Positions 10,109 to 47,624 of a stretch of DNA of 47,672 bases are shown in pieces (position 1 is the first letter of the stretch; every line of letters begins with the position of its first letter). The notes under the pieces were generated by a model that was not told the DNA's origin, searched no databases, and was given only the letters and a program-made list of their open reading frames with translations. The stretch lies in the NCBI GenBank assembly GCA_035650535.1, contig DASRHL010000174.1, forward strand, positions 1 to 47,672. Direction: 5' to 3'. The stretch comes from Acidimicrobiia bacterium. Lineage in GTDB: Bacteria; Actinomycetota; Acidimicrobiia; IMCC26256; PALSA-555. The position numbers and the translations under genes were made by a program.

Positions 10109-10178
10109 CCCATCAGGCCCTCCGCGGCAGGTCGCCTCACCGCCCCGGTAGCTCGCGAGTTCCCTAGACTCCGCGGCC

Positions 10179-16307: not shown

Positions 16308-16330
16308 CCCTGACAGTCACGTCAGCTTCG
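16308..16330. promoter_or_regulatory. CCCTGAC-N6-GTCAGCTTCG extended palindromic motif (site 1)
   Basis: CCCTGACagtcacGTCAGCTTCG is preceded by the AT-rich TTATATT and lies about 47 nt upstream of the poly-Lys protein start. It is identical at 17 fixed positions to site 22686-22708. Confidence 0.5.
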
Positions 16331-16376
16331 AACCCGGGCGGACGGCGTCGGGGACGACAAGGGGATGGGGGGGACC

Positions 16377-21278: not shown

Positions 21279-21355
21279 GGCGTCACGTCCCCACGAGGTC
21301 GCAAGATCGTCAAAGCCTACGCATCCTTTGCCGCGTCTTCACTGGCTCCGTGACC

Positions 21356-22742: not shown

Positions 22743-23540
22743 ATGGCCGGCACGCTCGTGGTGTTCCACGCCCATCCCGACGACGAGGCGATCCTGACCG
22801 CAGGGACGATGGCCCGGGCCGCCGCCGAGGGCCACCGGGTGGTGCTGGTCGTCGCGACGCGGGGCGACCACGGCGAGGTCGCCGACGGTGTGCTCGCGCC
22901 GGGCGAGACGCTGGCCGACCGGCGGGTGGCCGAGACCCGGCGGGCCGCGGAGATCCTGGGCGTGGCCCGGGTCGAGTACCTCGGCTACTCGGATTCGGGG
23001 ATGGAGGGCGAGCCGCTCAACGACGCCGCCGGCTCGTTCTGGTCGGCCGACGTCGACGAGGCGGCGGCGCGCCTGGCCCGGATCCTCCGGGAGGAGGCCG
23101 CGGACACGCTCACGATCTACGACGAGCGGGGCGGGTACGGGCACCCCGACCACGTGCAGGTGCACCGGGTCGGTGTGCGGGCGGCCGAGCTCGCCGGGAC
23201 GGCGCGGGTGTACGAGGCGACCGTCGACCGCGAGCACGTCCGCGACCTCATCCGCGCCACCCGCGACGAGCTGGCGCTGGAGCCGCCGCCCGACGACATG
23301 CCCGACCCCGAGACCTTCGACGTGGGGGTCGACGCCGACCGGATCACCACGACCGTCGACGTCCGCGCCTTCGCCGAGCAGAAGCGGGCCGCGATGGCGG
23401 CGCATGCGAGCCAGATCCCGTCGGACTCGTTCTTCCTGGCCGCACCGCCCGACCTCTTCGCCCACAGCTTCGGGACCGAGTGGTTCATCCGGCGCGGGGC
23501 GCCGCCGAGCCTCCGCGAGACGTGGCTGTTCGGACCCTGA
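22743..23540 (+). CDS. PIG-L/LmbE-family N-acetylglucosaminyl deacetylase
   Basis: ORF 22743..23540. VVFHAHPDDEAI and GYGHPDHVQVH are the zinc-binding motifs of the family. Confidence 0.85.
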   Translation: MAGTLVVFHAHPDDEAILTAGTMARAAAEGHRVVLVVATRGDHGEVADGVLAPGETLADRRVAETRRAAEILGVARVEYLGYSDSGMEGEPLNDAAGSFWSADVDEAAARLARILREEAADTLTIYDERGGYGHPDHVQVHRVGVRAAELAGTARVYEATVDREHVRDLIRATRDELALEPPPDDMPDPETFDVGVDADRITTTVDVRAFAEQKRAAMAAHASQIPSDSFFLAAPPDLFAHSFGTEWFIRRGAPPSLRETWLFGP

Positions 23541-24609
23541 GGATCGGCGGGCGCCGGACCCGCAGCGACCGGTCGGACGACCAGGGCGCGTACGGCGCCA
23601 TCGTCAACCCGGCGAGCGCGAGCAGCACCGAGTCGTAGTTGACGCGCCATCCCGCGAAGTCGCGCCACGCCCGTTCCCGGTCGGGCCGGATCGGGACGCC
23701 GGCCCCGCCGAGCCGGCGGTACGCGTCGTCGAACTCGTCCCGGCTGATGCTGATCGGCCCGTCGGGTGCGGGATCCGGGTCGTAGGGGATGCCGAACAGG
23801 TCGGCCAGCTCGCGAAGCGCCAAGTAGCCGGCCCGGATGCACAGGCCGGCCTCGGGGGACCACGGGATCGACAGCGCGGAGTTCGCGAGCGCGGCGCCGT
23901 CGAGCACGGCGCCCGCCGCCGTGATCCACGACCGGTTCGGGTTCGGCGAGCGGAAGAACGGGAGGACCGCGAACGTCGTGTGCGTCTCCGCGAGCTCCGC
24001 GAACCACTCCTCCCACGTCGACCAGAGCTCGGGCAACTGGTCGGTCCAGCCGATGGCGTGGAACCGCTCGAGCAGCTCGACGGCGGTCGGCGGCGTCCCC
24101 GCCCGCACCGCGAGCTTCGCGACGAGCAGCTCCCGGCGCGAGAACGACGAGTAGATCGTCGGCAGGTACGCGATCAGCAGCGCGAGCACCGCGAGCCCGG
24201 ACGCCGACTCGGCGAACGACAACGCGTAGCCGGCCGCGGTCCGGGGCGGGACGACGAACCCCAGCGTGAACAGCGACGAGCCGCTGAGCTCGAACGCCCT
24301 GGCCCAGTCGTGCACGACCGCGCCGCGGAGCACGAACGCGTACGCGGCGATGAGGATGACGAGCCAGCTGACGACGAGGAGGAGCAGGCCGAAGGGCGCG
24401 TACAACGCCATGACGCGGTCACGGCCCTCGTAGGTCTTGAAGCGCCGGGCGATGGCGTCGAAGAGCACCCGCAGGCTGCGGAACACGATGCGCGTGAGCC
24501 GTGACACGACGGCGCGCGGCAGCACGAAGGTTCGCATCGCCGAGTCGAGGACGATGCACACCAACGTGACCCCGGCGAGCACCAGGACGACGTCGACAAC
24601 GGTGCCCAT
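23485..24609 (-). CDS. Hypothetical integral membrane protein with a cytoplasmic C-terminal domain of about 200 aa
   Basis: ORF 23485..24609. It has three or four hydrophobic helices in the first 150 aa or so and a short re-entrant-like segment, SGSSLFTLGFVVP, between helices. The R-rich tail overlaps the PIG-L 3' end by 56 nt. Confidence 0.6.
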   Translation of the reverse strand: MGTVVDVVLVLAGVTLVCIVLDSAMRTFVLPRAVVSRLTRIVFRSLRVLFDAIARRFKTYEGRDRVMALYAPFGLLLLVVSWLVILIAAYAFVLRGAVVHDWARAFELSGSSLFTLGFVVPPRTAAGYALSFAESASGLAVLALLIAYLPTIYSSFSRRELLVAKLAVRAGTPPTAVELLERFHAIGWTDQLPELWSTWEEWFAELAETHTTFAVLPFFRSPNPNRSWITAAGAVLDGAALANSALSIPWSPEAGLCIRAGYLALRELADLFGIPYDPDPAPDGPISISRDEFDDAYRRLGGAGVPIRPDRERAWRDFAGWRVNYDSVLLALAGLTMAPYAPWSSDRSLRVRRPPILRVRTATSRGGSAAPRAG

Positions 24610-24644
24610 TGGTGCGCCAGCTTCGCAGATCTCGCGTTCTCGGC

Positions 24645-24675
24645 ACGCCGGGCCGGGACGATCCCAGCCCGGCGT
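24645..24675 (-). terminator. GC-rich hairpin between the multicopper oxidase stop and the membrane-protein start (terminator or attenuator candidate)
   Basis: ACGCCGGGC-c-GGGA-cga-TCCC-a-GCCCGGCGT has 13 bp in two stacked helices. There is no U-tract. Confidence 0.4.
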
Positions 24676-24691
24676 CCGAAGAGATGCCGGA

Positions 24692-26032
24692 CTACTGCAC
24701 GACGAAGGCCGTCACCATCCCGAACATGCCGCTGTCACCTTCGGCGTGGTTGAGGATGTGGCAGTGGAACGCCCACACGCCCTTCTCGGTCGCGTGGACG
24801 AGCACCGTGAAGCGCTGGCCGGGCGCGATCATCAACGTGTCGACCTGGTACGGGTTCGGGACCGCGAAGCCGTCCTGTCCGATGACGAGTTGCGGGAGCC
24901 CGTGCAGGTGCATCGGGTGGATCTGCAGTCCCTCGTCGAAGTAGTTGATCTCGACCCAGTCGCCCAGCTTCGCGACGATCGGCGCCGTCGCCGGGAAGGA
25001 CTTGCCGTTCAGGCTGAGGCCGACCACGCCGGCGTCGTTGAGGACCATCGGGATCTGCTGGGTCACGATGACCCCGGCCGGCACGGGCGGGTCGCCGACC
25101 TGGAACACGCCCATCAGCCCGTCGGGCACCTGGTGCTCGGCGTGGTGGTGCGAGTGGTACATGCCGAGCTCGGAACCGTGGGCGGTGAACTGGTAGGTGA
25201 ACGTCTCACCGGGCTTGATCGGCGGCTGGGTGATGTCGGGGACGCCGTCCATCGCGTTCGGAACGGTGATGCCGTGGAAGTGGATCACGGTCGACTCGGG
25301 CAGTTCGTTCTTGAGGACGACCTTGACGTTGTCGCCGTCGTCGACCTTGATCAGCGGTCCCGGAACGGTGCCGTTGTAGGTCCACGCCTTGACGGTCTTG
25401 CCGGGCTCGACCTCCCAGTCGGCGATCTTGGCAGTGAGGTCGAACTCCTTCGTCCCGTCGGGCAGCACCGTCGGTGCGAGGGGCTGGTTGCCGACACCGG
25501 CGGTCTTCGCGGGGAACGCCTTGGTCCGGTCGGCCATCGTCTTGTCGATCGCGTCGTTGGCCGCGGTGTCGGTCCCGCCGGTTGCCGTGGCGGCGCCGCT
25601 CGTGCCGCCGCCGACCATCAGCATCGCGACCATGCCCGCGCCCTTGTGGCCCGGAATCGCGCAGTAGACGGTGTACGAGCCTGCCTTGAGGCTCGAGACG
25701 TCGAGGCTCTCGGTCGCTCCGGGGGCCAGGTCGGACGTCTTCAGGCTCGTGCCTTGCACGGTGAGGTTGTGCGTGACCTTGCCCGCGTTGTGCACGCTCA
25801 GCGTCGCGCCGACGTCGACGTTGATCATCTTCGGCGAGATCGAGAACTCGCTCAGCGTGACCTCCGTCCCCGCGGAGGCCTGGACGCGGTTGCTCGCGTC
25901 GTTGCTCTTCGACAACGCCCGCCCGGCGATCGCGAGCGCGGAGAACGCGAGCACGACGATCATGAGCGTAAACACCATCGTCGCAGCCCCGAATCCGCGG
26001 TCGTCGGGGTTCCTCCGTCGCACGCGCACCAT
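24692..26032 (-). CDS. Membrane-anchored multicopper oxidase: an N-terminal cupredoxin (type-1 Cu) domain fused to a two-domain laccase-like MCO
   Basis: ORF 24692..26032. N-terminal TM helix. Cupredoxin ligand pattern THNL...YCAIPGHKGAGM. MCO motifs HFHG, YHSHHH, HPMHLHG and HCHILNHAEGDSGM. Confidence 0.85.
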   Translation of the reverse strand: MVRVRRRNPDDRGFGAATMVFTLMIVVLAFSALAIAGRALSKSNDASNRVQASAGTEVTLSEFSISPKMINVDVGATLSVHNAGKVTHNLTVQGTSLKTSDLAPGATESLDVSSLKAGSYTVYCAIPGHKGAGMVAMLMVGGGTSGAATATGGTDTAANDAIDKTMADRTKAFPAKTAGVGNQPLAPTVLPDGTKEFDLTAKIADWEVEPGKTVKAWTYNGTVPGPLIKVDDGDNVKVVLKNELPESTVIHFHGITVPNAMDGVPDITQPPIKPGETFTYQFTAHGSELGMYHSHHHAEHQVPDGLMGVFQVGDPPVPAGVIVTQQIPMVLNDAGVVGLSLNGKSFPATAPIVAKLGDWVEINYFDEGLQIHPMHLHGLPQLVIGQDGFAVPNPYQVDTLMIAPGQRFTVLVHATEKGVWAFHCHILNHAEGDSGMFGMVTAFVVQ

Positions 26033-26154: not shown

Positions 26155-26604
26155 TCAGTCGCCGCGTGGAGGCGGGCGTCGGGTGCGCTTGAGCTCCCCC
26201 CGGCGGCGCTTCGCCTCGACCCGCTCGCGTGCGGCCGCCGGGCCGGGACGCGTGGGCCGGCGCGGCGGGCGGACGGCCAGGCCGGCGCGGAGCCGGGCGA
26301 CGAGGCGCTCGAGCGCGAGCTCGCGGTTGCGGGCCTGCGACCGCGTGTCGGCCGCGACGGCGCGGACGACCGGGCCCAGGCGGGCCCGGAGCCGCTCCCG
26401 CTGGCGGGGCCCGAGCGCGCGCGACGCCGCCACGTCGAAGCTGACCTCGACCCTCGTGTCGGAGGTGTTGGCGTGCTGGCCGCCCGGTCCGCCCGACCGG
26501 CTGACGCGAATGCGCAGTTCGGAGACCGGGATGCGGCAGCTCGGGGTCACCCGCACGAACCGTTCCGGCCCGCCGGCGCGGGCGCCGTCACCGGCCATGA
26601 CCAC
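26155..26604 (-). CDS. arfB: Alternative ribosome-rescue factor ArfB (peptidyl-tRNA hydrolase, GGQ)
   Basis: ORF 26155..26604. SRSGGPGGQHANTSDTRVE (GGQ motif) plus the basic C-terminal tail KRRRGELKRTRRPPPR that is characteristic of ArfB/YaeJ. Confidence 0.85.
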   Translation of the reverse strand: MVMAGDGARAGGPERFVRVTPSCRIPVSELRIRVSRSGGPGGQHANTSDTRVEVSFDVAASRALGPRQRERLRARLGPVVRAVAADTRSQARNRELALERLVARLRAGLAVRPPRRPTRPGPAAARERVEAKRRRGELKRTRRPPPRGD

Positions 26605-26669
26605 GGACCGTAGAGCCGTTTGACCTGTTCAGCGCGTTACCGGCTGGTAGATATGTTGCCGGAGCGCGA

Positions 26670-36815: not shown

Positions 36816-37628
36816 TCAGCCCGCTGCGCGGCGGACGACCCGGTCGAGGGAACGGCGCAGGTAGGGGCCGAGCAGGCCGGCCACGCGGGCGAGCGCGGCG
36901 GTCTGGACGTCGGCGGTGACGGTCAGGCGGTCGCGCTCGATGCCCCGCACGATGGCGGCGGCGACGGCGTCCGCCGTCCGGGGCTTGATCTTCGCGGAGT
37001 AGCTCGCCGTCGCCGCCGGCATCATCGCCCGTTCCCGCTCGAGCGCGGGCGTCTCGGTGTCGGGCGGGTACGCGCAGGCGACCACGATCCCGTGCGGGCG
37101 CAGCTCGGAGCGCAGCGACTCGGCGAGGCCCCGGACCGCGAACTTCGTCGGTGCGTAGGCGGCGTACCCGTAGAGCCCGATCAGCCCGACCGTCGACGAC
37201 ACCATGAGGAGGTGCCCGCGGCGCCGGTCCACCATCGTCGGCAGGACGGCCCGGATCGCGTTCACCGTGCCCAGGTAGTTGACGGCGACCTGGCGCCGGA
37301 AGACCTCGTCGTCGAGGTCGACGAACAGACCCGGATGCGCGTAGCCGGCCGACGTGACGAGCACGTCGACGGGCCCGAGCCTCTCAACGCCCTGCGCGAC
37401 CGCTTCGCGTAACGCGTGACCGTCCGCGACGTCGGCGGTCGCGCTCGCGACACGGCCCGCCGCGCCGGCGACACCGTCGAGCTCGGTTTGCGCGGCACGC
37501 AGGCGCGCGGCGTCCCGGGCCACGATCGAGACGCGCCCGCCGCGCGCCACCACGGCGCGGGCCACCGCGAGCCCGATCCCGCTCGACCCGCCCGTGACGA
37601 GAACGTGGGAACCTGAGAGGACCGTCAC
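36816..37628 (-). CDS. SDR-family oxidoreductase (about 270 aa)
   Basis: ORF 36816..37775. I prefer the GTG at 37628 (VTVLSGSHVLVTGGSSGIG). TGGSSGIG and the catalytic YAPTKFA. Confidence 0.8.
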   Translation of the reverse strand: MTVLSGSHVLVTGGSSGIGLAVARAVVARGGRVSIVARDAARLRAAQTELDGVAGAAGRVASATADVADGHALREAVAQGVERLGPVDVLVTSAGYAHPGLFVDLDDEVFRRQVAVNYLGTVNAIRAVLPTMVDRRRGHLLMVSSTVGLIGLYGYAAYAPTKFAVRGLAESLRSELRPHGIVVACAYPPDTETPALERERAMMPAATASYSAKIKPRTADAVAAAIVRGIERDRLTVTADVQTAALARVAGLLGPYLRRSLDRVVRRAAG

Positions 37629-37645
37629 GCGTCGGATCGTGCCAC

Positions 37646-39922
37646 GTGCTGCGGTACGGTCGCCCGGTGCGGCGTCTGGTCCACGTCGGAGTGCTCGCCG
37701 CCCTCCTCGGCGGCCTGCTCGCCGTAGCCGCCGGGCCCGCCGCGCCGGGCGCGCAGGCGTCGGCGACGACGTCACTCGACCAGCGCATCCGCGAGGCGGC
37801 CGGGCCGCTGAACGTCGCCGGCAGCGTCGACCAGGTGTACGTCACCGGTGCAGCCCCGAAGACCCGCCTCGAGCTGATCGACCGCTCCGCCCGCCGGGTG
37901 GCGACGGCGCGCGCCGACGCCCTCGGGAGCCACCTGTTCCGCGGCATCCGACCGGGTGACGGCTACCGCGTGAAGGTCGGATCACGGGTCGCGGCGCCGA
38001 GCGTGCACGTCGCGAACCCGGACGAGACCCCGCCGCCGACGCTCTACACGTCGCAGAAGCTGACCGACGGCTTCCAGTACCTCCGCACGCGCGACGGCAC
38101 CCTGCTCTCGATCAACGTCCACCTGCCCGGCCCGATCGACGCGGGCCCCTACCCCACGGTCGTCGAGTACTCCGGCTACGACCCGTCCAACCCCGACGGC
38201 AACCAGGCCGCGTCACGTCTTGCGCAGACGCTCGGCTACGCGACGGTCGGGGTCAACATGCGCGGGACCGGCTGCTCGGGCGGTGCGTGGCAGTACTTCG
38301 AGACCCTCCAGTCGCTGGACGGCTACGACGCGATCGAGACCGTGGCCGCCCAGCCGTGGGTCGCGTTCGGCAAGGTCGGAATGGTCGGGATCTCCTACCC
38401 CGGCATCACGCAGCTGTTCGTCGCGCAGACCCGGCCCCCGCACCTCGCCGCGATCACCCCGCTCTCGGTCATCGACGACACCTACCGCGGTGTCATGTAC
38501 CCGGGTGGCATCTTCAACAACGGCTTCGCCCTCCAGTGGGCAACCGAACGCCAGTCGGACGCACGTCCGGCCGGTCAGGGCTGGGCGAGGAAGCGCATCG
38601 ACGACGGCGACCGGACGTGCACCGCGAACCAGGCGTTGCGACTGCAGACGCCGAGCGTGCTCGGGGAGATCCGCGCCTACCGCTACTACGACCCCGCCAC
38701 CCTCGACCCGCTCGCGCCCTCCACGTTCGTCGACCGGATCCGCGTCCCGACCTTCCTCGCCGGCGCATGGCAGGACGAGCAGACCGGCGGCCACTTCCCC
38801 GACATGCTGGCGAACTTCCCGAAGGACGTGCCCCACAGGTTCACGTTGACGAACGGCACCCACTTCGACTCGTTCGGCCCCGAGCTGATCACGCGATGGG
38901 GCGAGTTCCTCGACTTCTACGTCGCGCATCGCATCCCGCACATCACGGCGGCATCCCGGGTCAGCGCGACCTTCGTCTACTCGAGGATCGTCGGCGTCCC
39001 CGGCCTGCAGCTGCCACCCGACCGCTTCGACGGCTCCACGAGCTACGCCCAGGCGCTCGCCGTGTACGAGGCCGAACCGCCGGTCCGGGTGCTGTTCGAC
39101 AACGGAGCGGGAGCCCAGCCCGGCGCGCCGGTGCCGGGGTTCGAGCGCAGCTTCGCGTCGTGGCCGGTGCCGGGGCTCACCCCCACCGCCTTCTACACCG
39201 GAGCCCACGGCACGCTCACCGAGACGAAGCCGACCGGTCCGGACGGCGCCAACGTGGTCGACCGGTACCACTACGACCCGAAGTCCGTGCCCCGCACGGA
39301 CCACCCGACGAACCTCGACGACTTCTTCCGCGCGCGCCCGTCGTACGACTGGAAGCCGTTGCCGAACGGCGACGCCGTCGCCTGGGTCACCCCGCCGCTG
39401 ACGTCGGACGTCGTCGCGCTCGGGCCCGCGAGCGCCGACCTCTGGCTCGAGTCGACCGCGCCCGACACCGATCTCGAGGTGACGATCACGGAGGTCCGCC
39501 CCGACGGGAAGGAGACCTACGTCCAGAGCGGTTGGCTGCGGGCCAGCCGCCGGAAGCTCGACCCGAGAACGTCGACGGACCTGGAACCGCGCCCGACCTT
39601 CACGCGCGCCGACGCCGCGCCCCTGCCCGCCGGTCGGTTCTCCCTCGTCCGCGTCGAGCTGTTCCCGTTCGGCCACGTCTTCCGGGCCGGGTCGCGCATC
39701 CGTCTCGCCGTGCAGGCGCCCGGCGGGAACCGCCCGCGCTGGGAGTTCCAGTCGCTGGGCGCCCGGGGGCGGGTGATCAACGGGGTCGCGCGATCGGCCC
39801 TGCATCCCTCACGGGTCGTGCTGCCCGTGGTACCCAATGTCCCGGTAGCGACCCCGCTCCCCGCGTGCGGCGCGTTGCGCGGGCAACCCTGCCGCGACTA
39901 CGAGGTACCGAAGTCGCCCTGA
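37646..39922 (+). CDS. Secreted CocE/NonD-family (S15, X-Pro dipeptidyl-peptidase-like) hydrolase
   Basis: ORF 37646..39922. Signal-like N-terminus, TRDGTLLSINVHLPG, YPTVVEYSGY, nucleophile elbow GISYPG, and a C-terminal beta-sandwich-like region. Confidence 0.75.
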   Translation: MLRYGRPVRRLVHVGVLAALLGGLLAVAAGPAAPGAQASATTSLDQRIREAAGPLNVAGSVDQVYVTGAAPKTRLELIDRSARRVATARADALGSHLFRGIRPGDGYRVKVGSRVAAPSVHVANPDETPPPTLYTSQKLTDGFQYLRTRDGTLLSINVHLPGPIDAGPYPTVVEYSGYDPSNPDGNQAASRLAQTLGYATVGVNMRGTGCSGGAWQYFETLQSLDGYDAIETVAAQPWVAFGKVGMVGISYPGITQLFVAQTRPPHLAAITPLSVIDDTYRGVMYPGGIFNNGFALQWATERQSDARPAGQGWARKRIDDGDRTCTANQALRLQTPSVLGEIRAYRYYDPATLDPLAPSTFVDRIRVPTFLAGAWQDEQTGGHFPDMLANFPKDVPHRFTLTNGTHFDSFGPELITRWGEFLDFYVAHRIPHITAASRVSATFVYSRIVGVPGLQLPPDRFDGSTSYAQALAVYEAEPPVRVLFDNGAGAQPGAPVPGFERSFASWPVPGLTPTAFYTGAHGTLTETKPTGPDGANVVDRYHYDPKSVPRTDHPTNLDDFFRARPSYDWKPLPNGDAVAWVTPPLTSDVVALGPASADLWLESTAPDTDLEVTITEVRPDGKETYVQSGWLRASRRKLDPRTSTDLEPRPTFTRADAAPLPAGRFSLVRVELFPFGHVFRAGSRIRLAVQAPGGNRPRWEFQSLGARGRVINGVARSALHPSRVVLPVVPNVPVATPLPACGALRGQPCRDYEVPKSP

Positions 39923-39947
39923 GGCGAGAGGGCCAGGAGACGCCATC

Positions 39948-41627
39948 ATGACCACGGCCGTGGCCGCGCTGAGTGACCGCTACGTCGAACGCGTCGCCGT
40001 CCTCGATCCCGTCGCGGCGACGTTCGAGGGGCTCACCGGACACGACGCGGAGATGACCGACTACTCCCCGGACGGCATCGAGGAGCGCCACACGTTCGAC
40101 CGCACGACGTTGCGCGAGCTGCGCGGGACCGCGCCCGAGGACGACCGCGACCGCATCGCGGCGGAGGTCATGTCCGAGCAGCTCGCACGCGGGCTCGCCC
40201 TCGCCGACGCCGGGGAGTCGTACCGCGACCTCAACGTCCTCGCGTCGCCGGTACAACTCGTGCGGCAGTGCTTCGACCTGATGCCGAGCGCGACGCGTGA
40301 CGACTGGGAGGTGATCACGGCCCGGGCGGCGCTCGTCCCGCAGGCGCTCGCCGGCTTCGAGGACACGCTCACCGAGGGCCGCCGCCAGGGGCTGGTCGCG
40401 GCAGCGCGACAGGCCGTCGCGTGCGCGCAGCAGGCGGACGTCTGGGGCGGTGTGAAGGGCGGCTCCCGGCCGTTCTTCCTCGCGCTGGCCGACCGGTTCG
40501 CGGCGAGCGGTATCGACGAACCCGCACTTCACACGCGCCTCGAGCAGGTCGCACAGCGCGCGACCGACGCGTACGCGGCACTCGGCCGCTACCTCGTCGA
40601 GGAGTACCTGCCCGACGCGAGCGAGCACGACGCGGTCGGCCCGGAGCGTTACGCCCGCTGGGCCTCGGTGTTCAACGGCATCGACCTCGACCTGCACGCC
40701 ACCTACGACTGGGGTTGGCAGGAGCTGCACCGCATCGAGCACGCGATGGGCAACGTCGCCGAGCGGATCCTGCCCGGCGAAGCGGTCGACGACGTCGTCG
40801 CGTACCTCGACCGCGATCCCGACCGGTCGATCGAGGGCGTCGAGCCGTTCCGGCGCTGGCTGCAGGACCTGCTCGACACCACTGTCGCCGAGCTGGACGG
40901 CGTGCACTTCGACATACCGGAGCCGGTCCGCCGCGTCGAGGCGATGATCGCACCCGAGGGTGGCGCAGCCGCCATGTACTACACGGGCCCGTCGGAGGAC
41001 TTCAGCCGCCCGGGCCGGACGTGGTACCCGACGCTCGGCAAGACGCGCTTCCCGCTGTGGCGTGAGGTGTCGATCTGCTACCACGAGGGTGTCCCCGGCC
41101 ACCACCTGCAGATCGCGCAGGTCCGGTACCTCGCCGACACGCTCACGCGCTTCCAGCGCACGCTCGCGGGCTGCTCCGGGCACGCGGAGGGTTGGGCACT
41201 GTACGCCGAGCGCCTGATGGGCGAGCTCGGCTACCTCGACGACCCGGCCAGCGAGCTCGGCATGTTGGCGGCGCAGTCGATGCGCGCGGCGCGCGTCGTC
41301 GTCGACATCGGTCTCCACCTCGAGCTCGCGCTCCCGCCCGGTCAGCGCTACCACCCGGGCGAGACCTGGACTCCCGAGCTCGCGCTCGCGTTCATGATCG
41401 AACGCTCGAAGATGCCGGCCGACTTCGTCAGGAGCGAGATCGACCGCTATCTCGGGTTCCCCGGGCAGGCGATCTCGTACAAGGTCGGCGAACGCGAGTG
41501 GCTCGCCGCGCGCGACGACGCCCGCCGCGCCGCCCGCGACGGCTTCGACCTCAAGGCGTTCCACGCCCGCGCGCTCGACCTCGGCCCCATGGGCCTCGCC
41601 CAGCTCCGGCGGGAGCTCGCCCGGTGA
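39948..41627 (+). CDS. DUF885-family protein (putative metallopeptidase-like)
   Basis: ORF 39948..41627. The length, the conserved YHEGVPGHHLQ and the C-terminal EIDRY...PGQAISYKVGE pattern are typical of DUF885. Confidence 0.7.
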   Translation: MTTAVAALSDRYVERVAVLDPVAATFEGLTGHDAEMTDYSPDGIEERHTFDRTTLRELRGTAPEDDRDRIAAEVMSEQLARGLALADAGESYRDLNVLASPVQLVRQCFDLMPSATRDDWEVITARAALVPQALAGFEDTLTEGRRQGLVAAARQAVACAQQADVWGGVKGGSRPFFLALADRFAASGIDEPALHTRLEQVAQRATDAYAALGRYLVEEYLPDASEHDAVGPERYARWASVFNGIDLDLHATYDWGWQELHRIEHAMGNVAERILPGEAVDDVVAYLDRDPDRSIEGVEPFRRWLQDLLDTTVAELDGVHFDIPEPVRRVEAMIAPEGGAAAMYYTGPSEDFSRPGRTWYPTLGKTRFPLWREVSICYHEGVPGHHLQIAQVRYLADTLTRFQRTLAGCSGHAEGWALYAERLMGELGYLDDPASELGMLAAQSMRAARVVVDIGLHLELALPPGQRYHPGETWTPELALAFMIERSKMPADFVRSEIDRYLGFPGQAISYKVGEREWLAARDDARRAARDGFDLKAFHARALDLGPMGLAQLRRELAR

Positions 41628-41687
41628 CTCCGGCGACGGTTCGTCTCTCCCTCGATCGCGCGGGAACCGGCACCATCGCGGGAGGCG

Positions 41688-43508
41688 TCAGAGGCGGCCG
41701 GCCTCCCGCGCCGCGGCTTCGGCGGCCTCGAGCTGCTCGGCGACGATCGCGAGGCCGCCGTCCCAGAACGAGGGATCGGCGAGGTCGACGCCGACGACAC
41801 GGCCGAGGGCCTCGGGGGTGTCGGAACCGCCGCGCGCGAGCAGCTCGAGGTAGCTGGGAACGAACTCGGCGCCGCGCTGCTCGTACTGGCGGTACACCGA
41901 CAGCGCGAGGAGCTGACCGTACGCGTACGCGTACACGTAGCCGGGGGTCCCGATGAAGTGCGGGATGTACGACCACCACGTCCGGTACCCGTCGGTGATC
42001 TCGACGGCGTTGCCGAGCATGTCGGCCTGGGTCGCCGCCCACAGCTCGTTGAACCGCTCGACCGAGAGCTCGCCCGCCCCGCGCCGTTCGGTGTGGACGG
42101 CGTCCTCGAATCGATTCATCGCGATCTGGCGGAACACCGTCGCGATCTGGCCCTCGAGGCTCTCGGCGAGCAGCGCGAACCGGTCGGCGGGATCCGAGGT
42201 GGCCTCGAGGAGGCGGCCGAACGTCACCGTCTCGCCGAACACCGACGCCGTCTCGGCCAGCGTCAGGGGCGTCGTCTGGTGGAAGATCCCCTGACCGCGC
42301 GCGAGGTACGCGTGCAACCCGTGACCGAGCTCGTGCGCGAGCGTGAGCACGTCGCGCCGGCGCGCCGTCCAGTTGAGCAACAGGTACGGATGATGTGACG
42401 GGACGGTGTAGGCGCAGAACGCGCCGGGCCGCTTGGCCGGGCGGACGGGCGCGTCGATCCAGGGCTGCTCGAAGAAGTTGCGCGCCGCGTCGGCGAGCTC
42501 GGGCGAGAACGACGCGTAGGCGTCGAGCACCAGCGCACGCGCCTCGCTCCAACGGAACTCCGACTCGCTCGCGGCGACCGACGCCATGCGGTCGTAGTCC
42601 GCGATCCGGTCGACCCCGAGGAGCCGGGCCTTCAGCGCGTACCACCGCTGCGGGATGTCGTAGCGCTTCACGACGGCTTCGACGAGGGCCTGCACCGACT
42701 CGTCGCTCGCCTCGTTGTCGAGGTTGCGGCTCGCGAGCCAGCCGTCGTAGTGGCGCAGCCGGTCGTCGGTCGCCTTGTCGGCGAGCAACGTGTTGAACAC
42801 GAACGCGCGCGTCCGCAGCCCGGGCGCGAGCGCGCCCGTCACCGCTTCCGCGGCCGTGCGGCGGACCTCGCGTTCGGGGTGCTGGAGCCGCGAGAGGCCC
42901 TCCTCGAGTGAGACCGACGTACCGTCGAGCTCCACCGTGATCATCGACGAGAGCTCGCTGAACAGCCGGGCCCACGCGCTCCGCCCCGTGACCGACTTCT
43001 CGGCCATGAGCCGTTCCTCGGGCTCGCTCAGGAGGTGCGGCCGGTAGCGGCGGGCCGACGCGAGGTAGTGCCGGCAGAACGCGAGGTCGTCGGCGGCGAG
43101 GATGCGCTCGACGTGCTCGTCGGGGAGCTCCGCCCATTCGAGCTCGAGGAACAACAGCTCGTTGCCGATCGCCGTCGAACGCTCCTCGACCGCGGCCAGC
43201 AGCTTGCCGCGCTCCGGGTCGGAGGTGTCGACGGAGAAGGCGAGGCTGGCGTACGAGCCCACCTTGCCGACGAGCTCGGACACGGCCGCGACCTCGCGCA
43301 TGACGGCGGCCAGCGCCGGCGCGTCGAGCTCCGCGACCCTGCCGCGGTGCACCTGCAGTGCCGCCGCCCGTTCGGCGGCGTCGTCGAGCATCGCGTCGAC
43401 GCCGTCGATGCCCCGGCCCTCGACCAGCGGCTCGAGGTCCCAGGCGACGCCGGCCGCCCGGAGGTCGTCGTCGAGCTCGCCGGTGCGGGCGTCAGCGCCG
43501 ATCGTCAT
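41688..43508 (-). CDS. pepF: M3B-family oligoendopeptidase F (PepF-like)
   Basis: ORF 41688..43508. Zinc motif HELGHGLH and the downstream ETASVFGE third-ligand region. Confidence 0.85.
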   Translation of the reverse strand: MTIGADARTGELDDDLRAAGVAWDLEPLVEGRGIDGVDAMLDDAAERAAALQVHRGRVAELDAPALAAVMREVAAVSELVGKVGSYASLAFSVDTSDPERGKLLAAVEERSTAIGNELLFLELEWAELPDEHVERILAADDLAFCRHYLASARRYRPHLLSEPEERLMAEKSVTGRSAWARLFSELSSMITVELDGTSVSLEEGLSRLQHPEREVRRTAAEAVTGALAPGLRTRAFVFNTLLADKATDDRLRHYDGWLASRNLDNEASDESVQALVEAVVKRYDIPQRWYALKARLLGVDRIADYDRMASVAASESEFRWSEARALVLDAYASFSPELADAARNFFEQPWIDAPVRPAKRPGAFCAYTVPSHHPYLLLNWTARRRDVLTLAHELGHGLHAYLARGQGIFHQTTPLTLAETASVFGETVTFGRLLEATSDPADRFALLAESLEGQIATVFRQIAMNRFEDAVHTERRGAGELSVERFNELWAATQADMLGNAVEITDGYRTWWSYIPHFIGTPGYVYAYAYGQLLALSVYRQYEQRGAEFVPSYLELLARGGSDTPEALGRVVGVDLADPSFWDGGLAIVAEQLEAAEAAAREAGRL

Positions 43509-43553
43509 CGTTCCCCACTCCCGTGCGCGTCTCGCGGGCGTCTCCTGCGCGCC

Positions 43554-45833
43554 TCACGCGTGCGAGCCTACGGCGCGACCCACGTCGACCCGGCCGTCCG
43601 GCGCGAGCGCCTCGGGAAGCGGCCGGGCGTGCACGACGAGCAACGCCTGGGTCGCGCGGGTCAGCGTGACGTAGAGCAGGCGCAGACCGGGCGGGTCGGG
43701 CCGCACGAGCTCGGCCGGCTCGACGACGATCACCTCGTCGAACTCGAGACCTTTCGCGTCCATCGCGGCAAGGACCGCCACCGGCGCGTCGAGCGCGTCC
43801 GCCGTCCCCGCGATCGCCCCGACGTCCGCCAGCTCCGCGACCAGTTCCGCGTGGAGGCGGGTCGGCGCGATGACCGCGACCGTGCCGTCGCGCGCGGTTG
43901 CGCGCCGCGCCGCGGCCGCGGCGGAGCGGACCAGGTCGTCGGCGGCGACCGGCTGGAAGCGCGGCTCACGACCCGCCGAGCGGACCGCCCGTGCGGGCCG
44001 GACGCCCGGCGCCGCAGCCGCGAGGACCCGGTCGGCGACGGCCATGATCTCGGCCGGGGTGCGGTAGTTGACCGAGAGCTCGACGACACGGGCACCCGCG
44101 TGCCCGGGCAGGTTCGCGAGGACGTCGTTCCATCCGGCGGGCGCGCCGGGGCGGCTGGCCTGGCCGAAGTCGCCCACGAGCGTCATCGACCCCGACGGGC
44201 ACCGCCGGGCGAGGACGCGCCACTGCATGGGCGAGAGGTCCTGTGCCTCGTCGACGAGGATGTGCCCGAACGTGCGCGGCTCGTCGGGCTCGTCGCCGGC
44301 GCCGCTGCCGTTGCTCCCCGCGTAGCGGGCGGCGATCTCGGCCCCGGTGACGAACCCGCCGACACCGAGGTCGGCGACCACCCGTGACGCGGCGTCGTCG
44401 GCGGACCGGCGCCGCGCCCGGCGCCGGCGGGGACGGGCCGACTCGGGCGGGCCGAGCAGCGCGTCGGCCTCGTCGATGAGCGCGAGATCGGGTTCGGTCC
44501 ACGCGACGTCGCGCACGTCCTTCGAGCGGGGCCGGTGGAGGAGCGCCTGCTCGTCGCGTGTCAGGACGCCGTCGGAGGCCGAGCGCACGAGCGCGGTGAA
44601 GCTGAACAGATCGTGGACGAGCTCGCCGCCGGTCAGGACCGGCCACATCCGTTCGAGCGCGGCCTGCACCTCGGGGAGACGACGGATGCGGGAGTCGAGC
44701 TCGCGGTCCCAGTCGGCGTCGTCGGGCGCGGCGGCACCCATCGCGCGCCGGTACTGCGTGCGCAGGTGCTCGACGACCGCGCGCACCACGAAGGGGCGGC
44801 GCTCGTTGTGGGTACCGCGCCGCGACCGGGTGCGGTCGACGATGCGCCGCGTCTCGCTCCGGCGGAGACGCAGGACGGTGCCGTCGAGGACGGTGACCAT
44901 GTCGCGCGGGAGGGGATGCTCGCGGTCCCGCACCGCCCGCCGGATCACCTCGGCCATGCGGGCGTCGCCCTTCAGGGCGGCGGCCGCCGGGCTGTCGTCG
45001 GCGCGGACGCGGTACTGGGGCTTCAGCCCGGCCGGGGTCGAGAGCTGCACGTCGGCCTCGCCGAGCGACGGGAGGACCTGGTCGATGTAGCGCAGGAAGA
45101 TCGTGTTCGGCCCGACGAGCAGGACGCCCTGCGACGCGAGCCGCTTCCGGTGCGTGTAGAGCAGATAGGCGGCGCGGTGCAGCGCCACCGCGGTCTTCCC
45201 GGTGCCCGGGCCGCCCGCCACGATGAGGACGCCGGCGATGTCGGCCCGGATCGCCTCGTCCTGCTCGACCTGGATCGTGGCGACGATGTCGCCCATGCGG
45301 CCGGTGCGGGCCCGCTCCAGGCTCGCCAGGAGCGCGCCCTCCCCCACCACGGTGAGCCCGGCGGCGCCGGCGGCGCCGGCGTCGAAGACCTCGTCGTCGA
45401 GCCCGATCAGCTCGCGGCCGTGGCCGGGGCGGGTGATGAAGTGGCGGCGGCGGACGACCCCCATGGGCGACACGCCGGTCGCCCGGTAGAACGGCTCGGC
45501 GACCGGGGCCCGCCAGTCGACCACCAGGGGGGCCTGCTCGTCGTCGAAGACCGCGATGCGCCCCACGTAGAACCGCCGGTCGGCGGTCTCGGCCCGGAGG
45601 TCGAGGCGCCCGAAACACAGGGGAGCCTCGCCGATGTCGAGGGCGGCGAGGCGGCGCCGGGTGAGCGCGTCGGCCGCGTCGCGCTCGAGCCGGGCCTGGT
45701 GGGTGCCTCCCTGACCCACCTCCGAGTACCCCTCGGCGACGCGGGCCGCGGCCCGGCGCATGGCGTCGAGGCGCGCGTAGGCGGCGTCGACGTACTGCTG
45801 CTCGGCGGCGAGCTCGGGGTGCTGATCGGCCAA
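43554..45833 (-). CDS. helD: HelD/HelR-like UvrD-family ATPase (RNA-polymerase-associated helicase IV type)
   Basis: ORF 43554..45833, TTG start. The N-terminal coiled region (AAEQQYVDAAYARLDAMRRAA), then VIVAGGPGTGKTAVALHRAAYLLY (Walker A), ILVDEAQDLSPMQW (Walker B), and the terminal YVTLTRATQ match actinobacterial HelD architecture. Confidence 0.8.
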   Translation of the reverse strand: MADQHPELAAEQQYVDAAYARLDAMRRAAARVAEGYSEVGQGGTHQARLERDAADALTRRRLAALDIGEAPLCFGRLDLRAETADRRFYVGRIAVFDDEQAPLVVDWRAPVAEPFYRATGVSPMGVVRRRHFITRPGHGRELIGLDDEVFDAGAAGAAGLTVVGEGALLASLERARTGRMGDIVATIQVEQDEAIRADIAGVLIVAGGPGTGKTAVALHRAAYLLYTHRKRLASQGVLLVGPNTIFLRYIDQVLPSLGEADVQLSTPAGLKPQYRVRADDSPAAAALKGDARMAEVIRRAVRDREHPLPRDMVTVLDGTVLRLRRSETRRIVDRTRSRRGTHNERRPFVVRAVVEHLRTQYRRAMGAAAPDDADWDRELDSRIRRLPEVQAALERMWPVLTGGELVHDLFSFTALVRSASDGVLTRDEQALLHRPRSKDVRDVAWTEPDLALIDEADALLGPPESARPRRRRARRRSADDAASRVVADLGVGGFVTGAEIAARYAGSNGSGAGDEPDEPRTFGHILVDEAQDLSPMQWRVLARRCPSGSMTLVGDFGQASRPGAPAGWNDVLANLPGHAGARVVELSVNYRTPAEIMAVADRVLAAAAPGVRPARAVRSAGREPRFQPVAADDLVRSAAAAARRATARDGTVAVIAPTRLHAELVAELADVGAIAGTADALDAPVAVLAAMDAKGLEFDEVIVVEPAELVRPDPPGLRLLYVTLTRATQALLVVHARPLPEALAPDGRVDVGRAVGSHA

Positions 45834-45927
45834 ACGGGGGTCCTGCTTCCCGAGGGGGAACAGTGCAGTCTAGTTGGCCGCTCGCCACCCCGATTCCCAC
45901 CCGGTCCTCCACCACGCCACGCCGCGC

Positions 45928-46551
45928 TCAGAGCTGCCGCGGGATCGTGACCTCCGTGGCGGCGTCGAGCAGCAGCACCGTCTCGCCGAGCACGAGCCCG
46001 CCCGCCTCGGCGAGGAGCCGGCGGCCGCCCAGGTTGGGAACGACCTCGCCGGGGCCACCGAGGGCGCGCTCGACCGAGCGGATCACGCCGCCGTGGGTGA
46101 CGACCAGGGCGGTCGCGCCGCCGGGAAGGGTGGCCGCGCACTCGGCCAGCGCGGCCAGGGCCCGGGCCGCGAGCCGGTCGTCGGGCTCGAAGCCGGGCGG
46201 GCGGCGCCCGTCGCGGAGCGCGCCGGGGTCGCGGGCCTCGATCTCGCGGCGGGTCAGGCCCGTCCACTCGCCCGCGTCGCGCTCGCGAAGCCGGGGGTCG
46301 CAGACCACGCCCGTCCGACCGTCCGCGAGCACGCTCGTCGCGATGATCTCCGCGGTCCGCACGGCGCGTTCGAGGTCCGACGAGAAGACCGCGTCGCACC
46401 CATGGAGCGTGCGGCCCGCCGCGGCAGCCTGCTGCTCGCCGAGCGCCGAGAGGGGCGGGTCCGCCTGGCCCTGCCAGCGGCCGTCGGCGTTCCACGTCGA
46501 CTGCCCGTGCCGGACGACGAGCAGGGCACGCGGGCTGGGCATCACCGGCAA
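45928..46551 (-). CDS. Histidine phosphatase family protein (phosphoglycerate-mutase-like)
   Basis: ORF 45928..46551. LLVVRHGQSTWN (RHG motif), SDLERAVRTAEI, and VVTHGGVIR. Confidence 0.85.
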   Translation of the reverse strand: MPVMPSPRALLVVRHGQSTWNADGRWQGQADPPLSALGEQQAAAAGRTLHGCDAVFSSDLERAVRTAEIIATSVLADGRTGVVCDPRLRERDAGEWTGLTRREIEARDPGALRDGRRPPGFEPDDRLAARALAALAECAATLPGGATALVVTHGGVIRSVERALGGPGEVVPNLGGRRLLAEAGGLVLGETVLLLDAATEVTIPRQL

Positions 46552-46577
46552 CGTAGCTTCCCGGTACAGTCCTGCCC

Positions 46578-47624
46578 GTGGAACCGGCGGTGCTGACCCT
46601 GGTCGCCGACGACGCGGTGCACGAGGTCGGGGCCGCCGTCGGCGCCGACGGCACGATCACGATCCGCCCCGCCGACCTCGCGCGGGCGACGGGCTGGGAG
46701 CTGCGCGACGAGGGCCTCTGCCGCCGCGACGTGTGCGTGCCGGTGCGCGATCGCGGGGCCCTGGCCGGCGACGCGGGGATCTCGCTCGGCGCGTTCGCCG
46801 GCGCGCTCCGCCGGGCGCTCGCGGTGGAGCCGGCGGCGCGTTTCGCCGTGCTCGGCGACGCCGCCGGCGGCGCGGCGCCGGGCGGCGAGCTCGTCGCGCC
46901 GGACTTCACGCTGCCCGACGTGGACGGGCGGCCGGTCTCGCTGGCCGACTTCGCGGGGCGCAAGCGGCTGCTCGTGTTCTGGTCGTCGTGGTGAGGCTGC
47001 CGCTGGGACCTGCCGGTCTGGCAGGAGCTGCACGAGGAGCTCGGACCGGCGGGCCTGGCGACGATCGCCGTCGCGCTCGACGAGGACGCCGACGCCGTGC
47101 GCCAATGGGCCGTCGACGAGCCGCCGGTGCCGCTCACGTACCCGGTGCTCGTCGACCGTGACCACGTGCTCGCCGAGTCGTACGGCGTCGTCAACGTCCC
47201 GACGACGGTGTGGATCGACGAGGCGGGCCGCATCGCCCGACCACCGGCCATCGCCCTGGCCGACGACAAGTTCAAGGAGTTCACCCGGATCGAGTCGGGC
47301 GCCCACCACGCGGCGCTCCGCCGCTGGGTCCGCGACGGCACGCCACCGATGACGGCCGCCGAGATCCGCGCGCACGCCGATCCCCCGACCGACGAGCTCC
47401 GCCTCGCCCGCGCCGAGCGTCGGCTCGCGATGTACCTGTTGCGCGCCGGAGCGCCTGACCTCGCCGCCGCGCACCTGGCCCGCGCGCTCGAGCTCGCGCC
47501 GATGGACTTCACCATCAACCGCGGCTCGATGCCGGTGCGCGGGCTCGATCCGTTCGGGCAGGAGTTCTTCGACTTCTGGCAACGCTGGGAGGACGCGGGC
47601 CGTCCCGGCTACGGCGCGGACTGA
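46578..47624 (+). CDS. ResA/TlpA-like thioredoxin-fold protein with an in-frame TGA (46992-46994) at the redox-active position. Candidate selenoprotein (348 aa including U).
   Basis: Track ORFs 46578..46994 and 47097..47624 are in the same frame, and the only stop between them is TGA 46992-46994. The read-through translation is [48 protein letters not shown]...[31 protein letters not shown]. This aligns with ResA (FWGTWCEPCKKEFP ... PLPTT), with the TGA at the first Cys. A SECIS-like hairpin follows. Confidence 0.7.
47009..47025 (+). promoter_or_regulatory. Bacterial SECIS-like stem-loop downstream of the in-frame UGA
   Basis: CCUGCC-GGUCU-GGCAGG is a 6-bp stem starting 15 nt after the UGA, with apical loop GGUCU. 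A further helix, G06-C28/G05-U29/U04-G30, is possible below a 2x2 internal loop. Confidence 0.6.

Follow-up and report, generated by a model that had tools for sequence, protein, structure and literature searches.

The 47.7-kb window (the whole stretch of DNA analysed, 47,672 nucleotides) holds at 46578-47624, on the forward strand, a reading frame of 348 codons plus a terminal stop, and translation reveals a single internal stop, the TGA at 46992-46994 (Table 1). The ORF list gives 46578..46994 and 47097..47624 separately, in an identical frame, and the original prediction, that these are two parts of one frame parted by one TGA, is borne out by the translation. The GTG at 46578 is the first start available past the in-frame upstream stop, and the N terminus of the joined protein aligns with that of full-length homologues.

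Table 1 Features of the predicted selenoprotein gene in the window
Feature	Coordinates	Strand	Basis or details
Predicted complete selenoprotein gene	46578..47624	+	348 codons; TGA terminator 47622-47624; Sec at codon 139
N-terminal beta-rich domain, residues 1-100	46578..46877	+	Invariant W40, G46, C48, C53
ResA/TlpA-type thioredoxin-fold domain, residues 107-220	46896..47237	+	Pfam, Foldseek, invariant columns
UGA, almost certainly read as selenocysteine, residue 139	46992..46994	+	Nucleophilic position of U-G-C; TGA at 70 loci, TGC/TGT at 10 loci
Putative resolving Cys141	46998-47000	+	U-G-C redox motif
Candidate bacterial SECIS hairpin CCUGCC-GGUCU-GGCAGG	47009..47025	+	Codons D-L-P-V-W-Q-E
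C-terminal all-helical domain, residues 236-348	47283..47621	+	Invariant columns, helices in homologue model

Coding signal across the internal TGA

GC content at codon positions 1/2/3 was 0.83/0.57/0.98 upstream of the TGA, 0.85/0.47/0.97 over the 34 codons that separate it from the following start codon, and 0.76/0.51/0.93 past that second start. With GC3 at 0.93-0.98 on both sides of the TGA, the coding signal is continuous. Comparison with the nearest Sec-form relative (locus L001) gave a dN/dS of ~0.29 downstream of the TGA (0.147/0.509), a sign of purifying selection, and 0.40 in the 34 codons directly after it, so that this short stretch does keep the coding character earlier ascribed to it. 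The TGA at codon 139 is the only one in the whole 47.7-kb window with coding-type composition over 40 codons on either side. TGA is the ordinary stop in 28 of 36 window genes, and therefore shows no genome-wide reassignment. The gene, TGA included, is matched at 100% identity by two independent metagenome assemblies (Logan SRR5581483 and ENA ERZ27279688, over 912 and 804 nt).

Conservation of TGA and replacement by Cys

Orthologues carry both TGA and Cys codons in the aligned column. TGA is found at 70 orthologous loci in at least five phyla (Actinomycetota/Acidimicrobiia, Binatia, Thermodesulfobacteriota, Chloroflexota, and Alpha- and Gammaproteobacteria), and TGC or TGT, verified on DNA, at ten loci from five independent lineages (Streptomyces and four others). 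True Cys homologues thus have TGC/TGT at exactly the codon that had been assigned to the first Cys of the redox motif, and in a neighbor-joining tree the Cys forms are scattered among the Sec forms. Downstream frames are intact, and 68 of the 70 TGA loci are free of any other stop or frameshift, which speaks against decay of the locus. An extra TAG stop in two distant relatives (L023 and L025) may be a sign of decay.

Over 100 homologues exist as one undivided protein of ~345 aa. Among the matches listed, 119 of 120 homologues have W[A/S]xW-C-G-C-R, so the motif one residue shorter than CxxC is a trait of the family, in which both WASW and WSSW occur. The downstream Cys and the cis-Pro loop, both said earlier to be conserved, are present in the window protein (C141 and N206-V207-P208). 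The TGA within the frame almost certainly encodes selenocysteine, which would be inserted at it in the source organism.

A candidate SECIS hairpin tied to the TGA

Downstream of the UGA lies a small hairpin (−10.0 kcal/mol, z = −3.27) whose 6-bp stem carries a loop of 5 nt (GGUCU); the loop begins 20 nt past the UGA. It agrees with all four published bSECIS criteria (bSECISearch-type, as quoted in PMC13188914: loop of 3-9 nt, stem of 4-16 bp, G within loop positions 1-2, 16-37 nt from the UGA, MFE ≤ −7.5 kcal/mol). Precisely this stem is the consensus that RNAalifold found for 37 Sec-form sequences. All five stem pairs (5/5) are present in 74/74 TGA-bearing loci and an N-GU-N-U loop in 73/74, and no Cys form keeps both stem and loop. 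The window hairpin is identical to that of L001.

In Sec forms, Leu+6 is encoded by CTG or TTG only, with CTC at Leu+12 in 46/70; similarly, Gln+10 is CAG in 70/70, with a CAA:CAG ratio of 11:4 where Gln stands at +11. The peptide DLPVWQ occurs in 69/70 Sec forms vs. 10/119 Cys-form proteins, and one Cys form that retains it (P0004) has the Leu codon CTC, which breaks the stem. Going by codon choice, the hairpin is preserved through a synonymous-codon constraint specific to Sec forms. Because four of six pairs never vary and 54 of 500 shuffles reach the observed score (i.e., there is no significant compensatory covariation in a stem that hardly varies), support for the hairpin comes from conservation, not covariation. 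The 5-bp stem by itself reaches only −4.7 kcal/mol in the Reyranella clade.

The fold of 72 nt (46989-47060) contains a competing, longer, window-specific hairpin (MFE = −42.6 kcal/mol, z = −2.95). We rejected it as the SECIS because its 3′ arm is unconserved even in L001 and RNAalifold did not recover it. Rfam returned no match at gathering threshold in the whole window, and none, SECIS models included, at E up to 10 in 46900-47150.

The short hairpin agrees with the bacterial SECIS model, whose prototype is E. coli fdhF, in lying within the ORF directly 3′ of the UGA, in its 5-nt loop, 20-nt spacing and 6-bp stem, and in having G at loop positions 1-2 ahead of a U. In its GGUC, the loop is similar to the apical loop of fdhF. 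In contrast to the bacterial prototype, it is very short and has neither a bulged U nor a lower stem shared across clades; SelB binding is predicted. This SECIS-like hairpin, which the original prediction had overlooked, is the strongest mechanistic evidence for the selenoprotein reading. The family offers a compact natural case of a candidate SECIS written in a five-residue peptide (L-P-V-W-Q), and its Cys-form lineages act as an internal control, for in them the constraint on the RNA has visibly been lifted.

Domain architecture

Three domains were delimited with the aid of columns invariant in a 45-sequence alignment (Table 1). In the N-terminal domain, C48 (46719-46721) and C53 (46734-46736) make up a C-x4-C pair on a beta-hairpin. 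The AlphaFold2 model of this domain (pLDDT 93.9) has strands from residue 2, and a fold search against the PDB gave no significant match (best E = 0.52, TM = 0.43). Neither a signal peptide nor a membrane anchor could be made out on inspection of the N terminus, which shows no hydrophobic segment and forms a beta-strand of the folded domain from residue 2. The protein is probably cytoplasmic.

The middle domain matches Pfam AhpC-TSA (E = 8.1e-21) and Redoxin (E = 1.2e-17) over residues 107-220, with 74.7 bits for PF00578 against a cut-off of 26, and contains W138-U139-G140-C141-R142 as well as the cis-Pro loop. Structure was modelled for a 65%-identical Cys homologue standing for the window protein (pLDDT 94.4), and the top PDB matches of this homologue model in Foldseek were B. 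subtilis ResA (1su9/1st9) and DsbE (3gl3) (target TM-score 0.83-0.86, E = 2.5e-11, rmsd 2-3 Å). The ResA/TlpA-like fold of the original prediction is thereby upheld.

The C-terminal domain is strongly conserved, its conserved residues including R282, A307, P308, D310, R315, D324, F326, G327, F330, W337, G341, and P343. Its weak TPR-like similarity consists of sub-threshold TPR_12/TPR_2 Pfam matches over residues 274-308. Foldseek found no PDB chain spanning both the thioredoxin-fold and C-terminal domains (query TM-score ~0.35).

Relationship to known families

The best NCBIfam match of the window protein, scored with U replaced by C, is NF041054 (WAxxUGC_long, ResA-like WAxxUGC motif-containing protein; E = 1.6e-63, profile positions 7-315 of 354), an equivalog model used by PGAP with a curated cut-off of 300 bits. 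The RefSeq family named in the original prediction does exist and is the closest one, but the window protein scores 215.2 bits, below that cut-off, and is therefore a relative rather than a certified member. The two have in common a length of ~350 aa, the three-domain layout, the W-[A/S]-x-W-U-G-C motif and the Sec column. The window's W-S-S-W-U-G-C has Ser for the Ala of the family name, which stands at position −3 in most of the WAxxUGC family; the change is conservative, and W, U, G, and C are in register. The "long" architecture is matched by the 348 aa and by the invariant residues of the N- and C-terminal domains.

When representatives of ten clades were scored, only that of Chloroflexota (370 bits) passed the NF041054 cut-off. 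The single Reyranella representative reached 287 bits. Scores were 252-256 for Binatia and Thermodesulfobacteriota, 215-233 for the actinobacterial clade of the window (221-233 for the window protein's closest relatives) and 198 for the Cys form of Streptomyces. For most members of the actinobacterial clade the model fits the C-terminal domain poorly, the best stretch being about positions 6-205.

A UGC-containing TlpA/Prx-like selenoprotein family has also been listed (PMC2398784, PMC13188914), and a "Prx-like (UGC-containing)" family was named by Zhang & Gladyshev 2008. It has a thioredoxin fold (pfam00578/cd02966), a single Sec in U-G-C and many Cys homologues, and was reported to be commoner in non-marine samples (PMC2398784, PMC13188914). 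Compared by description with this family, whose published exemplar is MDE0950781.1, the window protein likewise has the PF00578 fold, the UGC motif and Cys homologues aligned at Sec. The literature family is itself a computational prediction. The descriptions (PMC2398784, PMC13188914) come without domain architecture, SECIS or function. A literature search found no report of selenium incorporation in any family member, and a search on "WAxxUGC" found no papers. The family is already catalogued, and the window gene is a correct call on a split gene, not a new kind of system.

NCBI names of the homologues include "TlpA disulfide reductase family protein," and the window protein shares with ResA, TlpA, CcmG(DsbE), and StoA the fold, the W-x-x-W-C before the nucleophile and the cis-Pro loop. 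It differs from ResA, TlpA, and DsbE in its active site, U-G-C (or C-G-C in the Cys forms), which is shorter by one residue than their C-x-x-C, and its scores against all four models are below the cut-offs (bits/cut-off: ResA 72.4/170, StoA 51.6/210, TlpA 45.6/230, DsbE 22.4/123). Unlike these extracytoplasmic proteins, it has no evident signal peptide or anchor, and it has two extra conserved domains. It also differs from peroxiredoxins (AhpC/TSA): the peroxidatic motif P-x-x-x-[T/S]-x-x-C is absent, the context being L-L-V-F-W-S-S-W-U with no Pro at −7, and PrxQ/BCP models gave 12-28 bits vs. cut-offs of 140-260.

Sec machinery in the window and related loci

The ~40 Pfam-annotated genes of the window include no selA, selB, or selD and no second selenoprotein. 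In ARAGORN searches, the window yielded no tRNA of any kind and 60 related loci yielded no tRNA-Sec, and tblastn with approximate E. coli SelD and SelA queries gave no match in 1.4 Mb of window plus flanks, which is a weak negative. At least one order of Acidimicrobiia is documented to possess the full Sec machinery (bioRxiv 10.64898/2026.04.03.716425).

Alternative explanations

The internal TGA could mark a pseudogene, i.e., a recent TGC/TGT-to-TGA nonsense mutation in a Cys-type redoxin whose downstream part is decaying. TGA is indeed one nucleotide from TGC and TGT, close Cys forms exist, and the additional TAG in L023 and L025 would be in keeping with decay. The comparative data effectively refute this reading, which we regard as highly improbable: TGA is conserved at loci in several phyla, nearly all of them otherwise uninterrupted, the window gene itself has low dN/dS downstream with GC3 of 0.93-0.97, and C141, R142, the cis-Pro loop and the C-terminal invariants are all intact. 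An error of sequencing or assembly has a negligible chance of explaining the TGA, given its presence in both independent assemblies and at the 70 other loci. The same can be said of two separate genes, of 138 aa and 175 aa, a reading for which one can cite that the L001 orthologue is called as products of 139 and 198 aa and that public collections contain the C-terminal fragment as a product of gene calling. The division would fall in the middle of the thioredoxin-fold domain, at its active site, the 34 start-less codons separating the two pieces are conserved coding sequence, and the homologues are single proteins; domain continuity thus refutes it.

It is improbable, but less so than the preceding readings, that the UGA is decoded otherwise (as Trp, Cys, or Arg by near-cognate tRNAs, or as Cys delivered by tRNA-Sec), or that the Sec machinery has been lost and only the 138-residue fragment is made. 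No Sec machinery was found in the window or any flank, and switches between Sec and Cys forms are frequent among family members. However, the SECIS-like hairpin of the window is fully intact, whereas in lineages that abandoned Sec the codon switched to TGC/TGT and the hairpin or its loop drifted; moreover, TGA is the normal terminator of most window genes.

Proposed mechanism and function

Very probably, then, 46578-47624 encodes one 348-residue cytoplasmic selenoprotein in which UGA-139 is recoded through SelB/tRNA-Sec and a SECIS hairpin. The hairpin, within the CDS and 15 nt past the UGA, would recruit SelB/tRNA-Sec, which would recode UGA-139 to selenocysteine. The product would have three tightly packed domains: the N-terminal beta domain with its C-x4-C, the ResA/TlpA-type fold with W-S-S-W-U-G-C-R, and the helical C-terminal domain. 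On the model of ResA/TlpA, the U139 selenolate would attack an oxidised substrate, and the intermediate might be resolved by C141 in the form of a strained U-G-C selenenylsulfide.

Only SDR recurs as a neighbour in more than two clades, which is too weak for pathway assignment, and no neighbourhood examined shows a link to cytochrome c maturation genes. In the actinobacterial clade, SDR, SGL, Zn-ADH, and PIG-L neighbours are conserved.

We consider it rather unlikely that the protein, instead of being a ResA-like disulfide reductase, is a new type of cytoplasmic selenoenzyme, with the strained U-G-C selenol/thiol pair and the invariant C48-x4-C53 hairpin working together, either in an intramolecular redox relay or to hold a metal or metalloid through four ligands (Se,S,S,S), and with the helical C-terminal domain binding substrate. 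If that were so, the SDR/SGL/Zn-ADH/PIG-L neighbours might indicate a small-molecule pathway, e.g., one of a low-molecular-weight thiol. We prefer the reading as a ResA/TlpA-like selenoprotein. The family joins a U-G-C redox centre of unusual, one-residue spacing to two conserved domains that are uncharacterised. Current concepts of selenoprotein biology are left unchanged.

Consequences for annotation

Gene callers do split such genes in two, as had been supposed: the window gene, its L001 orthologue and most of the 70 TGA-bearing orthologues are cut into meaningless fragments. Annotation pipelines split the gene in the window's clade because the clade lies below the NF041054 cut-off. The model also misses the Binatia and Thermodesulfobacteriota representatives, and the one Reyranella representative tested is just under the threshold. 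A lower NF041054 cut-off, or added seed sequences, would mend many annotations.

Reading frame and conservation of the in-frame TGA

The gene reads through as a single frame of 348 codons whose sole interruption on translation is one TGA (codon 139, U139; ...[27 protein letters not shown]...), and the ORF list gives its two halves as separate same-frame ORFs, as the original prediction had it. Genuine genes in the window (GC 72%) have GC3 >0.9 and GC2 ~0.5. GC1/GC2/GC3 was 0.83/0.57/0.98 5′ of the TGA, 0.85/0.47/0.97 over the 34 codons 3′ of it that contain no start, confirming the coding character predicted for that stretch, and 0.76/0.51/0.93 in the remainder of the gene. We scanned all six frames for stop codons with 40 coding-type codons on each side; this was the only TGA found, together with one TAG at an ordinary gene junction. 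Two independent metagenome assemblies match the window sequence at 100% identity, TGA included, and both assembly artefact and chance are ruled out as its origin. TGA terminates 28/36 window genes, and is therefore not reassigned genome-wide.

We read the active-site codon in 80 orthologous loci (one genome per species). TGA occupies the column in 70 loci (Sec forms: Actinomycetota/Acidimicrobiia MAGs, Binatia, Thermodesulfobacteriota, Chloroflexota, one gammaproteobacterium, and many Reyranella/Rhodospirillales), and TGC or TGT in 10 loci from five independent lineages (Cys forms, including five Streptomyces genomes and the genes of homologues P0001, P0035, and P0060, all TGC, and P0004, TGT; all checked on DNA). 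In a neighbor-joining tree, the Cys form L083 is embedded among the Sec forms of the actinobacterial clade, and Streptomyces groups as sister of the Sec forms from Binatia/Thermodesulfobacteriota; this scattering of Cys forms among Sec forms indicates that Sec/Cys exchange happened repeatedly. The nearest relative of the gene, L001 (GCA_936417725.1), carries TGA, is syntenic with the window (UvrD-like helicase, His-phosphatase, redoxin), and is split by its annotation into 139-aa and 198-aa fragments. The dN/dS between the two genes 3′ of the TGA (0.147/0.509) shows that this region is translated and under selection. Decay, which the original prediction had named as counter-evidence, was thus not seen here; an additional in-frame TAG was present only in two distant TGA loci, L023 (a gammaproteobacterial MAG) and L025 (a Rhodospirillaceae MAG with U-R-C in place of U-G-C), which are possibly decaying copies or MAG errors.

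Coordinates of features (window positions unless a locus is named)
Feature	Position	Strand	Remark
Selenoprotein gene	46578-47624	+	GTG start at 46578
In-frame TGA	46992-46994	+	codon 139
N-terminal domain	46578-46877	+	100 residues
Candidate SECIS hairpin	47009-47025	+	CCUGCC-GGUCU-GGCAGG; z -3.27
Long GC-rich hairpin	47002-47059
72-nt fold	46989-47060		MFE -42.6 kcal/mol; z -2.95
Gap to divergent His-phosphatase start	46552-46577		26 nt
SDR gene	36816-37841
Region of five-gene block	36816-46551
ORF	10152-10823	+	GC3 0.93-0.95
ORF	16314-16937	+	GC3 0.93-0.95
ORF	23485-24711	-	GC3 0.93-0.95
Branched-chain amino-acid ABC permease	18612-21338	-	908 residues
RF-1-domain protein	26155-26628	-	ArfB-like
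Streptomyces stem, L018-L022	~10427-10445
In-frame TAG, L023	4944-4946
In-frame TAG, L025	10214-10216

A SECIS-type hairpin that accompanies the TGA

Every Sec form shares the string [C/U]UGCC-N-GU-N-U-GGCAG, starting 15-16 nt 3′ of the UGA. In the window it forms a candidate SECIS hairpin, which fits the published bSECIS model, as quoted in PMC13188914, on every criterion.

Window hairpin and the bSECIS criteria quoted in PMC13188914
Criterion	Required	Window hairpin
Apical loop	3-9 nt	5 nt (GGUCU)
Upper stem	4-16 bp	6 bp
G in first two loop positions	required	G-G, then U
UGA to loop	16-37 nt	20 nt
MFE	<= -7.5 kcal/mol	-10.0 kcal/mol

Exactly this stem, and no other, was returned by RNAalifold for 37 non-redundant Sec-form sequences, and among the TGA-bearing sequences 5/5 stem pairs are kept in 74/74 and the N-GU-N-U loop in 73/74. 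No formal covariation was detected in the stem (a single G-C to G-U change; 54/500 shuffles score at least as well), because the stem hardly varies, and no Rfam model matched the hairpin. The stem alone is weak in the Reyranella clade (-4.7 kcal/mol).

Judged from sequence comparison, the support for the predicted hairpin is constraint that tracks the TGA rather than the protein. For Leu +6, Sec forms use only CTG or TTG (70/70), whereas CTC encodes Leu +12 in 46/70 of these genes; Gln +10 is CAG in 70/70, with Gln at +11 being CAA in 11 and CAG in 4. Of the Sec forms, 69/70 encode the peptide DLPVWQ, vs. 10/119 Cys-form proteins among the homologues listed; in Cys forms Pro +7 is often Gly/Ala, Val +8 mostly Ala/Ser, and Gln +10 often Arg/Glu/Asp. 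The Cys form P0004 is a natural control, retaining DLPVWQ but encoding Leu by CTC, which places a C.C mismatch in the stem. Stem and GU loop are both retained in 0/5 independent Cys lineages. We judge the original selenoprotein call correct, and careful.

In the Streptomyces loci L018-L022 (TGC; five closely related genomes, hence one event), a 5-bp stem is kept at the SECIS position by a two-sided change from CUGCC/GGCAG to CUCCC/GGGAG, with a CGAAU/CGAGU loop lacking GU; it may be the remnant of a SECIS, or Leu/Glu codon choice may have produced it by coincidence. The long GC-rich hairpin overlaps the SECIS stem and is its competitor in the 72-nt fold. It is window-specific: its 3′ arm is not conserved in L001, and the hairpin is not recovered by RNAalifold. 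It probably just reflects the high GC content of the coding sequence, but could still modulate Sec insertion in the source organism.

Protein family and domain architecture

The window protein (U replaced by C) matches Pfam AhpC-TSA/Redoxin at residues 107-220, and its top NCBIfam match is NF041054, ‘ResA-like WAxxUGC motif-containing protein’ (E 1.6e-63, 215 bits vs. a curated cut-off of 300), so that the family named in the original prediction does exist. A protein search returned 448 homologues, the full-length ones among the matches listed being ~345 aa; W-x-x-W-C-G-C-R is present in 119/120 of those listed, so the CGC spacing, rightly described as one residue short of CxxC, is a family trait. 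Invariant positions are W40, G46, C48, and C53 in the N-terminal domain, W138-[U/C]139-G140-C141-R142 at the active site, N206-V207-P208 in the cis-Pro loop, and ~20 within the C-terminal 110 residues.

The AlphaFold2 model of P0001, the closest true Cys homologue (65% identical), has three packed domains and very high confidence (pLDDT 94.4, pTM 0.91). The central one aligns with the structures of B. subtilis ResA, DsbE, StoA, and TlpA (target TM-score 0.83-0.86), consistent with the predicted ResA/TlpA-type fold; no PDB chain spanning beyond this domain was found (query TM-score ~0.35). The N-terminal domain of the window protein, modelled alone (pLDDT 93.9), had no significant Foldseek match in the PDB (best E 0.52); it contains an invariant G-x-C-x4-C-[V/I]-P hairpin. 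Because a modelled beta-strand begins at residue 2 and a hydrophobic leader is absent, the protein, in contrast to ResA and TlpA, appears to be cytoplasmic.

Without CxxC or anchor, and far below the family cut-offs, the window protein is not a ResA/TlpA/DsbE proper, and peroxiredoxin identity was also rejected. The gene belongs to the UGC-containing selenoprotein kind, outside the curated NF041054 equivalog. A ‘Prx-like (UGC-containing)’ selenoprotein family described in 2008 from ocean metagenomes comprised 46 Sec sequences, alongside 855 Cys homologues, and is reported as commoner in non-marine samples (PMC2398784); PMC13188914 also lists a UGC-containing TlpA/Prx-like family. NF041054 scores were 370 bits in Chloroflexota, 288 in the gammaproteobacterium, 287 in Reyranella, 252-256 in Binatia and Thermodesulfobacteriota, 215-233 in the actinobacterial clade including the window, and 198 in Streptomyces (Cys form). 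The cut-off thus excludes most TGA-bearing representatives tested (L001, L003, L016, L017, L024, L028), only Chloroflexota passing, which probably explains the persisting split annotation.

The analysis shows one gene in which UGA occupies the nucleophile position of a ResA-type fold; a resolving Cys follows two residues on, and the SECIS-type hairpin is suitably spaced. From established Sec biology, SelB-GTP-Sec-tRNA(Sec) would bind the hairpin and deliver Sec at the UGA; by analogy with ResA/TlpA chemistry, the selenolate would attack an oxidised substrate and C141 would resolve the intermediate as a selenenylsulfide spanning one Gly. Disulfides of the C-x-C type are under strain and comparatively oxidising. 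We speculate that the invariant C48-x4-C53 provides a relay and that the conserved helical C-terminal domain provides a surface for substrate binding. The selenoprotein call would not surprise a specialist; what remains of interest is the gap in annotation, a compact SECIS that is encoded within a peptide and has natural controls, and a three-domain architecture that is uncharacterised.

Sec machinery and gene neighborhood

No tRNA was found in the 47.7-kb window, nor selA, selB, or selD among its ~40 annotated genes; no tRNA-Sec was found in the flanks of related loci, nor any SelD/SelA-like gene, the latter a weak negative given approximate queries. Within Acidimicrobiia, the order Actinomarinales is documented to have the complete Sec machinery (bioRxiv 10.64898/2026.04.03.716425), which is background support at class level only.

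The window encodes regulators (TetR, a two-component system), metabolic enzymes (P450, aldehyde dehydrogenase, acyl-CoA enzymes, fumarase, SDRs), two ABC transporters, proteases/peptidases (Lon, PepX, M3 peptidase), and a multicopper oxidase, RF-1-domain protein, DUF885, UvrD-like helicase, and His-phosphatase. An SDR lies divergently upstream of the redoxin in four clades, and SGL, Zn-ADH, and PIG-L genes lie downstream in the actinobacterial clade; in the related actinobacterial loci L089 and L083 the SDR is directly upstream. Five genes (PepX-type S15 peptidase, DUF885, M3 peptidase, UvrD-like helicase, His-phosphatase) separate SDR and redoxin in both the window and L001, which suggests an insertion or rearrangement in this sub-lineage. 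The neighborhoods give little help on selenoprotein function, and the window ends 48 nt past the gene.

The GTG start has no obvious Shine-Dalgarno sequence ahead, and the transcript may be leaderless. Three high-GC3 ORFs, whose codon composition is strongly of the coding type, have no Pfam match at E up to 1e-5. The permease, with two BPD_transp_2 stretches, is apparently a LivH-LivM fusion, and the small RF-1-domain protein, an ArfB-like peptidyl-tRNA hydrolase, adjoins an oligopeptide ABC operon.
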